Source of the DNA: Giardia intestinalis
Lineage: Eukaryota
Strand: one strand, 5' to 3'
Assembly (NCBI GenBank): GCA_000002435.2
Contig: CM018790.1
Length of the DNA stretch: 64,000 nt
The position numbers were made by a program, and so were the translations under genes. The notes beneath the pieces are model-generated. The model had not been told where the DNA came from, did no database searches, and worked only from the letters and a program-made list of their open reading frames with translations. Positions 39,101 to 40,892 of this stretch are shown here, piece by piece; positions within the stretch are counted from its first letter, which is position 1; every line of letters begins with the position of its first letter.

Positions 39101-40170
39101 AAGGAGCCGGCAGTGGGGCTTAGGCGCAGCAAAGGCACCCGATTCGTTCTCTGATTGGCCGCGAGGCAGCAGGCACATGGGGCGGCATCACCGCTTGTTT
39201 TTGGATTTTCTGTTTCCCTGCGCGTTGTGCAGGGGTCCGTAGTGGTTTGAGTATCACAGGCTACACATAGTAGATGCGTTTACTACCTAAGTCATATCTA
39301 AATCTATGCCTTTCCGCGGCAGAGGAACCACCAGCAGAGGAAGCCGACGAGGCCCCCGACGATGATGACAGCGGCCACGGCGATGCCTGCAATGGCGCCG
39401 GTAGAAAGGCCACTCTTGTTCGTGCTTCCGCCGGCACTGTCACCGTTCATGAGGTAGCAGAGGACGGAGCCTTGATTATTAGATGGAGGAGCGCAGCTCA
39501 TGCAGCCAGTAACTCCCTTGACACTTCCACTGTTGCTGTCACACGAAGTGCATGGTCCAGCTGCTGATCCGACCATATAGTACCCAGCTGCGCATGACGT
39601 ACACTTATCAGAGCTATCTGCAGTCGAGCATGTCTTGCAGGTCGAATGACACGAGGGGCATGCTCCATTATTGGGCTGAAGACCATTGGCACATGTTTCG
39701 CACTCACCCTTGCTATCAGCTAATGTGCATATCTGTTTGCCTGGCTGCTTGGTAGTTTCATAGCAGCCGCCTTCCTTGAGGAAGTAGTTAGCGGCGCATT
39801 TGGTACATGCTCCATTATTCATTTCAGTACAGAAAGCTACTCGTGCGTTACTTGTTGTACAGACCCCGTTCAGAGGAGCCTGATTATCCACTGAGCACTG
39901 GGAGCAGTAGTCTGTCCCGCCGATCCTTGCCCCACAGACCTTACATCCGTTCTTGTCCGCCGTACACGCATCCCCGCAGGTGCCCCCTTGCATAGGATCA
40001 CTACTTTTGTATATTAATGCCTTGCCAGCAGGACAAGCACTACACTGATTGTTGGCTGGCCCAACGCACTCAGCGCACTCAGGGCTGCATGCCTTACACT
40101 TCCTGTCAGTATCTCCATAGTATCCGCTGATGGCCGTGCAGTCGGATACGCACTGATTTGTTGGAGTGAG
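36103..40170. repeat. Left arm of a ~4.07-kb near-perfect inverted duplication (partner 43644-47711), covering the VSP 3' coding end, its poly(A) signal and ~3.2 kb of GC-rich ORF-poor DNA.
   Basis: Every ORF in this arm has an identical-sequence mirror ORF in the right arm with coordinate sum 83814 (e.g. 38837-39178(-) = 44636-44977(+), 37156-37749(-) = 46065-46658(+)). The outer junction was read directly (left ...catcctGTGGACC vs right GGTCCACacttc). The inner junction is at ggagtgag|gtagttcc. Confidence 0.9.
39278..39284 (-). terminator. Poly(A) signal AGTAAAC downstream of the left VSP copy (mirror of 44530-44536).
   Basis: Mirror of the right-arm signal, lying within the inverted duplication. 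Confidence 0.5.
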
Positions 40171-40892
40171 GTAGTTCCACCATTGCACTCAGTATAGGCT
40201 TCGTTCTCTTTGCCTTCGTTATTGCACGTCTTACAGCCCGGTGTTATGCAGTTGCTAGTCGATTGGCATTCAGTTGAATCAGCGCTAGGCTGGAAGCCTT
40301 CACTGTATGTGCAAGCACCACCCTGATTGGACGAGTTGGCAGGGCAACTAGCAACGCACGACTTTTTGTTGAGGCCAAAGATGGTCTTATCAGAATCGGG
40401 GCACTCTTTGCATACTGCTCCGTCGCCGTTCTTTTCACAAGTCTTACAATCTTTTGCCCCGCCCGATGTGCAGGTAGTGCAGGTTTTCGCTGCTTCATCT
40501 ATGTAGTGTGTTGCTGGGCAATCGCCCTGATTAACGCACGTGCCTGTCTCACTGCCATCCTCCTTCTTCAGGTAGAGCGTGGCTCCAGTACACGAGGTGC
40601 ACTGCGTCTCTGTATTCTCGCATGTCTTACAGCTGGAAGCACATTTGCTGCATTTCTTTCCATTACGTGAGTCCACAAAATACCCATTATTGTAATCGGC
40701 CTCCTCGACACACGACGTTACGCCGTCGACTGTCTTGACAATCTTGCCGCCTCCACATGCATTGCACATCGCTGCCTTAGTGTTACTAGGATTAGCTGGC
40801 GTATTTGCTATCTGAATGAGTATTGTGTCGTGGTTTCCCGCAGCGGAGAAACCGCCACAGAAGAAGCCGGTGGGATCACCGGTGATAAACAT
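39304..40892 (-). pseudogene. Variant-specific surface protein (VSP) gene, disrupted. The 5' two-fifths (40892-40171, CxxC-rich, related to but distinct from the right VSP) are joined out of frame to the duplicated VSP 3' end (40188-39304) that encodes the TM domain and CRGKA tail.
   Basis: The upstream frame (40892..40014) and the VSP 3' frame (40188..39304) overlap in different frames. The 3' frame has a TGA at 40189-40191 just upstream of the duplication junction (40170). The 3' part is identical to the right VSP C-terminus except for one residue (GVTGCMSC vs GVAGCMSC). The N-terminus MFITGDPTGFF is not signal-peptide-like. Confidence 0.65.

Follow-up and report, generated by a model that had tools for sequence, protein, structure and literature searches.

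The present analysis concerns a pair of head-to-head genes for variant-specific surface proteins (VSPs) in a 64,000-nt stretch of contig CM018790.1 from Giardia intestinalis isolate WB (assembly GCA_000002435.2; the whole stretch is hereafter called the window). The right gene, on the plus strand (41211..44510), is intact, whereas the left gene, on the minus strand (39304..40892), has its 3' part in another reading frame than its 5' part. From our point of view, the best reading of this locus, and a probable one, is that the 3' part of the left gene was acquired by in-register gene conversion between two old inverted paralogues, combined with the deletion of a single nucleotide beside the junction.

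The left gene is covered by two minus-strand open reading frames (ORFs), namely 40892..40014 (292 aa) and 40188..39304 (294 aa, GTG start), which lie in different frames (40892-40188 = 704, not a multiple of three). Its 5' part (40171..40892) is rich in CXXC motifs, and its 3' part (39304..40170) encodes a transmembrane segment and ends in the VSP hallmark CRGKA (…GGLVGFLCWWFLCRGKA). Upstream, the 3' frame reads ...SLY*VQWWNYLTPTNQC and is thereby closed by a TGA at 40189-40191. A first-pass annotation, made from the letters alone, had described two frames that part at 40171/40170 together with this TGA, and the ORF map and the translation bear this out. The two peptides that it had found similar, KSCVASCPANSSNQGGAC in the left gene and KGCIASCPANSNEAGGIC in the repeat unit of the right gene, are both present in the ORF translations, and its description of the left gene as a broken, chimeric VSP is equally apt. 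The last 867 nt of this gene, together with 3.2 kb of flank, copy those of the neighbour almost perfectly in inverted orientation.

This copy belongs to the one long inverted repeat of the window, the left arm of which (36103..40173) spans the 3' end of the left gene and its 3' flank, and the right arm of which (43641..47711), the likely donor, spans the corresponding part of the right gene. The arms comprise 4,071 nt each, are separated by a spacer of 3,467 nt and differ at two positions (39510 and 40171), and similarity collapses directly beyond both arm ends, on the left side inside 40174. Their shared coding part is confined to the last 867 nt of the ORFs, and the 5' parts of the two genes are unrelated beyond the family level. 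Between 39304..40170 and the 3' end of the right gene a single base differs, namely 39510, which leads to T for A in VKGV[T/A]GC.

The position of the frame break can be read from a three-way DNA alignment of the left gene, the right gene and the homologous gene of isolate DH, which we take to belong to assemblage AII. At the junction, the left gene has GAG TGC AAT GGT GG- AAC TAC | CTC ACT CCA ACA AAT CAG TGC, the DH gene GAA TGT AAT GAT AAC AAT TAT CTC ACT CCA, and the right gene GAA TGT AAT GAT AAA AGT TAT CTC ACT CCA. Perfect identity between the two WB copies begins at CTC (40170). The AAC TAC that precedes this switch is specific to the left gene, the right copy having T in place of its C at 40174 and 40171. 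It already reads N-Y in the 3' frame, so that the discontinuity must lie upstream of it, within the recipient and at a distance of 4-8 nt from the switch. The initial view that the gene is broken exactly at the breakpoint is hence correct in that the break adjoins the repeat boundary, but not in its exactness, since the missing base (AAT GGT GG-AAC TAC, 40174..40181) lies 4-8 nt upstream of the switch point.

That exactly one base is missing follows from the spacing between the CxxC and YLTP motifs, for which the four intervening residues are kept in 90 of the 90 motifs found among 122 family members retrieved; the left gene has 11 nt in this spacer, whereas the family needs 12 (four residues from Cys to Tyr). 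The restored reading, ECNGGNYLTP, occurs naturally in a VSP of isolate P15, and P0024 has the NGGN variant. Restoring the base yields a protein that can be aligned to the DH homologue (P0135) and to the full-length VSPs P0017 and P0018 with no gap at the junction. The Pfam VSP profile (PF03302) is split accordingly, with its positions 5-47 matched by the last part of the 5' ORF and the rest, to 397, by the 3' ORF, the best stretch of which covers positions 268-397. The 3' ORF scores 289 bits, the 5' ORF alone 23 bits (cut-off 31.4) and the base-restored join 319 bits. Judged from these alignments, the junction is in register and the defect is a 1-nt deletion beside it. We therefore reject the earlier idea that a cassette was copied into a paralogue out of register, as the left-specific AAC TAC in the 3' frame, the collinear DNA and protein alignments with paralogues, the invariant spacer and the split profile are all in register. 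If a single frameshift were placed at random in the 5' part (722 nt), its chance of being 8 nt or less from the boundary would be about 1%; it is unlikely that the closeness of the deletion to the repeat boundary is due to chance.

Since homopolymer indels are typical of PacBio assemblies, the question arises whether the frameshift is an artefact, caused either by a miscalled homopolymer or by a mis-join of two VSPs via a shared 200-nt block. The window agrees with the 2020 PacBio version of the genome and contains its 1,099-aa VSP, and this assembly was built de novo (read N50 12.7 kb), with homopolymer indels, 85 in number, corrected by 100x Illumina coverage (Xu et al., 2020; PMC7000408). 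The same frame break is found in older gene models. The 292-aa ORF is identical over its full length, including its out-of-frame tail (…TTSLQQISAYPTARPSADTMEILTGSVRHAALSALSALGQPTISVVLVLLARH), to XP_001704632.1 ('VSP [Giardia lamblia ATCC 50803]'), the first 239 aa of which are the 5' part of the left gene, and the 3' ORF, if read from an internal ATG at 39993, is identical to the adjacent 229-aa model XP_001704633.1 (vsp166, GL50803_112048). We take this accession series to be the 2007 annotation, derived from the Sanger assembly. The left-specific Thr is present in the 229-aa model, and the T/A difference between the arms (Thr left, Ala right) has been retained in both assemblies (P0136 vs P0139). 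The resequencing that had been asked for to exclude a 1-nt error has thus in effect been done, as the 2007 RefSeq product and the Illumina-corrected 2020 assembly share the frameshift, and reads with an N50 of 12.7 kb span arms of 4 kb. We reject a sequencing error on these grounds and regard an artefact of either kind as extremely improbable.

On these identities, XP_001704632.1 and XP_001704633.1 are the two halves of one frameshifted pseudo-VSP. In the table of protein clusters both occur solely in older source sets, as would be expected if they had since been removed or given another label. The right gene corresponds to KAE8302486.1/XP_001703907.2 on the 1,539,535-bp chromosome of the current Giardia lamblia WB assembly, and the earlier XP_001703907.1 was just a 229-aa tail with the right-arm variant VKGVAGC. 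Exact-sequence look-ups of the 1,099-aa VSP, the 292-aa ORF, the 229-aa ORF and a further tandem-repeat VSP (P0016) found nothing on record. In the catalogue of Adam et al. (2010; PMC2996952), vsp165 is described as head-to-head, TR225, on chromosome 2, with the initiator element (Inr) TAATGTT, 1,024 aa and 133 Cys, and vsp166 (GL50803_112048) as head-to-head, 229 aa, with the entry 'No' for Inr; in the supplement, the two form a pair on chromosome 2 that is placed in the group 'other head to head', the members of which differ in their ORFs.

The age of the arrangement can be judged from the DH contig AHGT01000171 (L010; assembly GCA_000498715.1), which is collinear with the window over 41790..37114. 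It holds the opposite-strand start of a tandem-repeat VSP with a signal peptide identical to that of the right gene (MLLGLLLFCAVARA), the homologous counterpart of the divergent intergenic region that separates the WB genes (318 bp, 40893..41210), so that the head-to-head arrangement is kept in DH, and 2.2 kb of homologous 3' flank of the left gene. The DH left gene (803-2443 of the contig) is an uninterrupted 546-aa ORF that runs through the junction (ESU34723.1, P0135). Its protein begins with MYSKDRPSYNLTFAIFITGDLAGFFCGG…, the same signal-less, Cys-depleted leader as in WB, and the gene likewise lacks an Inr. In both isolates this leader aligns to residues ~140-180 of P0017 (672 aa) and P0018 (675 aa), with loss of the CxxC present there. 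The signal-less leader and the head-to-head pair, both shared with DH, imply that the 5' truncation and the arrangement are older than the split between WB and DH. The DH left gene retains all conserved cysteines in its 546-codon frame although it lacks a signal peptide, and could either have been refreshed by conversion from live VSPs or be used in a way that is not evident from its sequence.

Identity between the WB and DH left genes varies sharply along their length. It amounts to 94-99% in the 5' coding part, to 82-90% in 40206-40007, to 45-72% in 40007-39525, to 84-91% in the conserved C-terminal region and to about 92% in the 3' flank, whereas the 3' part of the WB left gene is 99.95% identical to the right gene and 45-90% identical to the DH left gene. 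It hence groups with its neighbour in the same genome and not with its positional DH homologue, which is a signature of conversion, and the boundary of the tract is homologous and in register, as expected of such an event. As to whether both copies existed beforehand, the DH left gene has a ~92% homologous 3' flank and a head-to-head partner, although the DH right arm was not recovered. The simplest history that accounts for the homologous flank and the same partner is that the inverted arrangement is older than the split between assemblages AI and AII. The arms differ at only 1-2 of 4,071 sites, compared to 0.23% between assemblage-A isolates (WB vs another isolate, in neighbouring housekeeping genes), which indicates that their homogenisation is recent.

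One could alternatively imagine that an inverted duplication arose de novo in WB and placed the 3' cassette of the right VSP, with its flank, out of register at a non-homologous point of a paralogue, in which case the frameshift would be the junction itself. The near-identity of the arms would suit such a young event, the frame break and the identity boundary are no more than 8 nt apart (the ~1% coincidence mentioned above), and the right arm of WB borders on an ABC-transporter gene that is truncated here but complete in other isolates, which points to a WB-specific rearrangement nearby. However, the six left-specific bases AAC TAC before the switch read in the donor frame, the junction falls on a homologous codon of a conserved motif, and DH has the same 3' flank of the left gene as well as the same head-to-head pair. 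We thus regard a de novo duplication as quite unlikely, and infer that conversion took place instead. By the same token, the view of the locus as the scar of a duplication event, suggested in the first-pass annotation, is not borne out, since the head-to-head pair, the signal-less 5' end and the homologous 3' flank are all present in DH, and it is the homogenisation of the arms that is recent in WB.

For this conversion, the right copy was the likely donor, as the arms are similar in their coding part to the 3' ends found in further tandem-repeat VSPs (P0016, P0137), and the ~8% divergence of the flank from that of the DH left gene fits a comparison between paralogues rather than orthologues. 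A transfer from right to left is therefore what the sequence comparisons suggest.

Further relatives were sought for the 5' part, as had also been recommended at the outset, and the closest intact ones are the 546-aa ESU34723.1 (P0135) and the full-length P0017 (DH) and P0018 (P15). The middle 145 aa (40330-40766) share 96.6% identity with the full-length, signal-peptide-bearing P0017 and 94.5% with the DH left gene, and in this segment no WB protein is among the matches above ~60%. The P0017 site lies at a non-syntenic DH locus (L001, 10544-11000) and was rejected as orthologue of the left gene, given that VSP segments alone match there. Such a mosaic 5' part fits the vsp recombination reported by Adam et al. 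(2010).

Several points weigh against the conversion history that we favour. A search with the C-terminal half of P0135 found no second DH protein with more than 85% identity, so that the right arm of DH was not recovered and the ancestral inverted repeat is deduced from the shared flank alone. The DH contig is in places 8-15% diverged from WB, compared to the 0.23% background, and is best described as a positional homologue, whose strict orthology is not proven by the sequence. An intact allele may moreover persist among the four genome copies of Giardia, and literature searches on GL50803_112048 yielded no relevant paper and no expression evidence for the left gene.

The divergence from DH is not evenly distributed. 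Over 40171-41210, where it ranges from 4 to 15%, the substitutions between WB and DH show a strong transition bias (70 transitions, 8 transversions), and all of the 13 changes in the 33 nt next to the junction are transitions. We considered hypermutation or a process resembling repeat-induced point mutation and rejected it, as the ratio of 70:8 is not significantly different from the background of 21:6 (Fisher p = 0.18); several changes in the patch are also synonymous and affect two-fold codon sites in a conserved motif, and NGGN is natural elsewhere in the family.

With regard to the origin of the deletion, two sequences of events can be imagined. In the first, the frameshift is the older of the two, and the tract was brought to its end by the diverged patch at 40171-40203, which has 13 substitutions and an indel relative to DH and 9 substitutions relative to the right copy, given that conversion tracts stop where similarity drops. 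The start of the identity block indeed coincides with the onset of high similarity between the left and right genes, the DH left gene and the WB right gene are likewise highly similar for ~200 nt from the same motif, and the pseudogene carries other, older damage. However, this order leaves unexplained why the sole indel in 722 nt falls in a 33-nt patch, and a heterology of 1 nt is a weak barrier to branch migration, so that we consider it possible but doubtful.

In the second, conversion itself made the deletion, through error-prone repair synthesis or slippage in an A-run (GGAAAC -> GGAAC) at the tract end. Frameshifts of -1 of such a kind have been described for mitotic gene conversion in yeast. 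The deletion does lie near the tract end, the restored sequence would contain an AAA run, and the presence of one other change in the 4-kb arm means that the two events could be contemporaneous. On the other hand, it is a single, unreplicated event, the missing base belongs to the recipient's own sequence beyond the identical tract, and a frameshift could arise at any time in a gene that was already non-functional. We thus regard a causal link between conversion and deletion as rather unlikely.

The left gene was indeed already a pseudogene before the conversion. In functional VSPs, an Inr of the form (T/C)AATGTT is expected at the start codon (Adam et al., 2010; PMC2996952); the right gene has it (CTAATGTTG), whereas the left gene, with GCTATGTTT, does not. 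The N-terminus of the left protein (MFITGDPTGFFCGG) is not hydrophobic, with a mean Kyte-Doolittle value of 0.66 for its first 14 aa, compared to 2.21 for the right VSP, 2.38 for the full-length P0017 and -0.46 for the 229-aa ORF. The missing signal peptide, which had been suspected from inspection, is hence confirmed by hydropathy, and the first ~140-180 residues of the full-length relatives are absent. The CXXC-rich PF03302 ectodomain is present by way of the 3' ORF, and the transmembrane segment and CRGKA tail (…FLCWWFLCRGKA) are there but in another frame than the 5' part. Further damage is specific to WB. Three conserved Cys residues have become Tyr (DYNNGYF, CTYSEG, EAYTEC), changes that are WB-derived when polarised with the DH proteins P0135 and P0017, and an upstream leader ATG (40917..40934, minus strand) is followed by an in-frame TGA (MYSED*), formed by a CGA -> TGA change where DH reads MYSKDR in an ORF that starts at this very ATG. 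Taken together, the missing signal peptide, the missing Inr and the WB-specific damage mean that, as far as its sequence allows a judgement, the left locus would be unable to make a surface VSP. The earlier view of the locus as a direct snapshot of how the VSP repertoire is remodelled is overstated for this reason, the recipient having been a pseudogene already.

In the history that we favour, the ancestral left gene would have been a VSP of ~670 aa, of the type of P0017 and P0018, that lost its first ~140-180 codons, including those for the signal peptide, before the split between AI (WB) and AII (DH). In the WB lineage, the stretch that begins at codon ~240 and reaches 3.2 kb beyond the stop would then recently have been overwritten by the inverted copy of the right VSP, through homologous, in-register gene conversion between the inverted paralogues. 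The conversion tract would have begun in the ~200-nt block of high similarity that starts at the conserved YLTPTNQC motif. The one base missing 4-8 nt upstream of the tract end shifts the CRGKA tail out of frame, in a gene that, in WB, also bears the three Cys-to-Tyr changes and the stop codon in the leader.

The right gene (vsp165) encodes a VSP of 1,099 aa and 143 Cys, with the signal peptide already mentioned, the Inr TAATGTT and a CRGKA tail. It contains a tandem repeat of 225 bp (75 aa, 10 Cys; 41256..43548, plus strand) in 10.2 copies of 99% identity, which is exactly one repeat more than in the 2010 listing (1,024 aa, 133 Cys), and this difference could either be due to a collapse of the repeat in the older assembly or reflect copy-number variation. 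An 809-aa ORF that starts with TTG on the other strand (41153-43582) owes its existence to these repeats. The flanks within the arms (36103-39303 and 44511-47711), which extend 3.2 kb past the VSP stop, contain no long ORF, and no coding potential was detected in that of the left arm; they are yet ~92% conserved with DH. A Pfam scan of the 3.4-kb flank of the right arm in the three plus frames identified no family, and the minus-frame ORF pieces of this flank are non-protein in appearance. An AGTAAAC that resembles the polyadenylation signal of Giardia lies 22 nt past the VSP stop.

Beyond the right arm, an ABC-transporter remnant (47898-48862, plus strand) covers no more than residues ~613-932 of an ABC protein of 933 aa, of which contigs from two other sequencing runs (L005, L006) carry the complete gene. 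At the nucleotide level, synteny with these contigs begins abruptly at 47944, and there are two protein-level ABC matches in different frames, which change over near 48100. Nowhere in the window do we find the genes that precede the ABC gene in L005, which, together with the abrupt start of synteny, places the VSP island at a rearrangement breakpoint specific to the WB genome. Among short-read contigs from sequencing runs identical to the window, those on the left end at 34635/34693 and those on the right begin at 48828/48932. The block of ~13 kb in between, comprising both arms, both VSP genes and ~1.4 kb on each side, is not crossed by any of them, which hints at more repeats at either edge.

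Pseudo-VSPs, inverted VSP pairs and vsp recombination have all been published, and the left gene is an ordinary, already catalogued pseudo-VSP. In WB, 133 VSPs and 208 pseudo-VSPs have been counted, the latter being VSP homologues in which a proper signal peptide or start codon is missing (Xu et al., 2020; PMC7000408), which is what we find for the left gene. Like them, it is an ORF with CXXC motifs and CRGKA that lacks signal peptide and Inr and resides in a gene-poor VSP region. Unlike most of them, which lie in linear arrays, it is the head-to-head partner of an intact tandem-repeat VSP, and it is frameshifted, so that the old annotation split it into two models.

With inverted VSP pairs, such as vsp1267, of which 14 identical ones were described by Adam et al. 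(2010; PMC2996952) and 19 duplicated ones by Xu et al. (2020; PMC7000408), the locus shares a near-perfect inverted repeat with VSP coding sequence, abrupt arm ends and a spacer of 3.5 kb that is within the published 2-4 kb. It differs in that just the last 867 nt of the ORFs are shared instead of two identical complete ORFs, in that the ORF starts are 318 bp apart, and in that identity extends 3.2 kb past the stop, compared to 141-559 nt. Similar to the segmental conversion of antigen families, as in vsp recombination (Adam et al., 2010), the tract is sharply bounded, in register and derived from a paralogue; the recipient here, however, is a dead copy, and there is no sign of feedback into expressed VSPs. 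The switching of VSPs in Giardia is moreover epigenetic and does not proceed by recombination. The mosaics of VSG pseudogenes in trypanosomes are a further example of segmental conversion in an antigen family.

Overall, the present analysis adds to this picture that two catalogued models are one frameshifted gene, that the junction is homologous and in register, that a relative with an open frame exists in DH, and that a deletion lies beside the tract end. Its importance beyond curation is small, and it provides one dated example of the evolution of VSP loci through segmental exchange and decay, which is known in outline. Were the deletion tied to the conversion, the locus would represent a small natural example of mutagenic recombination in Giardia. 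One could go further and speculate, although we think it improbable, that the deletion is a by-product of conversion and that inverted pairs of pseudo-VSP and VSP are homogenised by continuing conversion in both directions. If this were true, such conversion could move sequence from dead copies into live VSPs and thereby provide a slow source of diversity at the DNA level, beside epigenetic switching.

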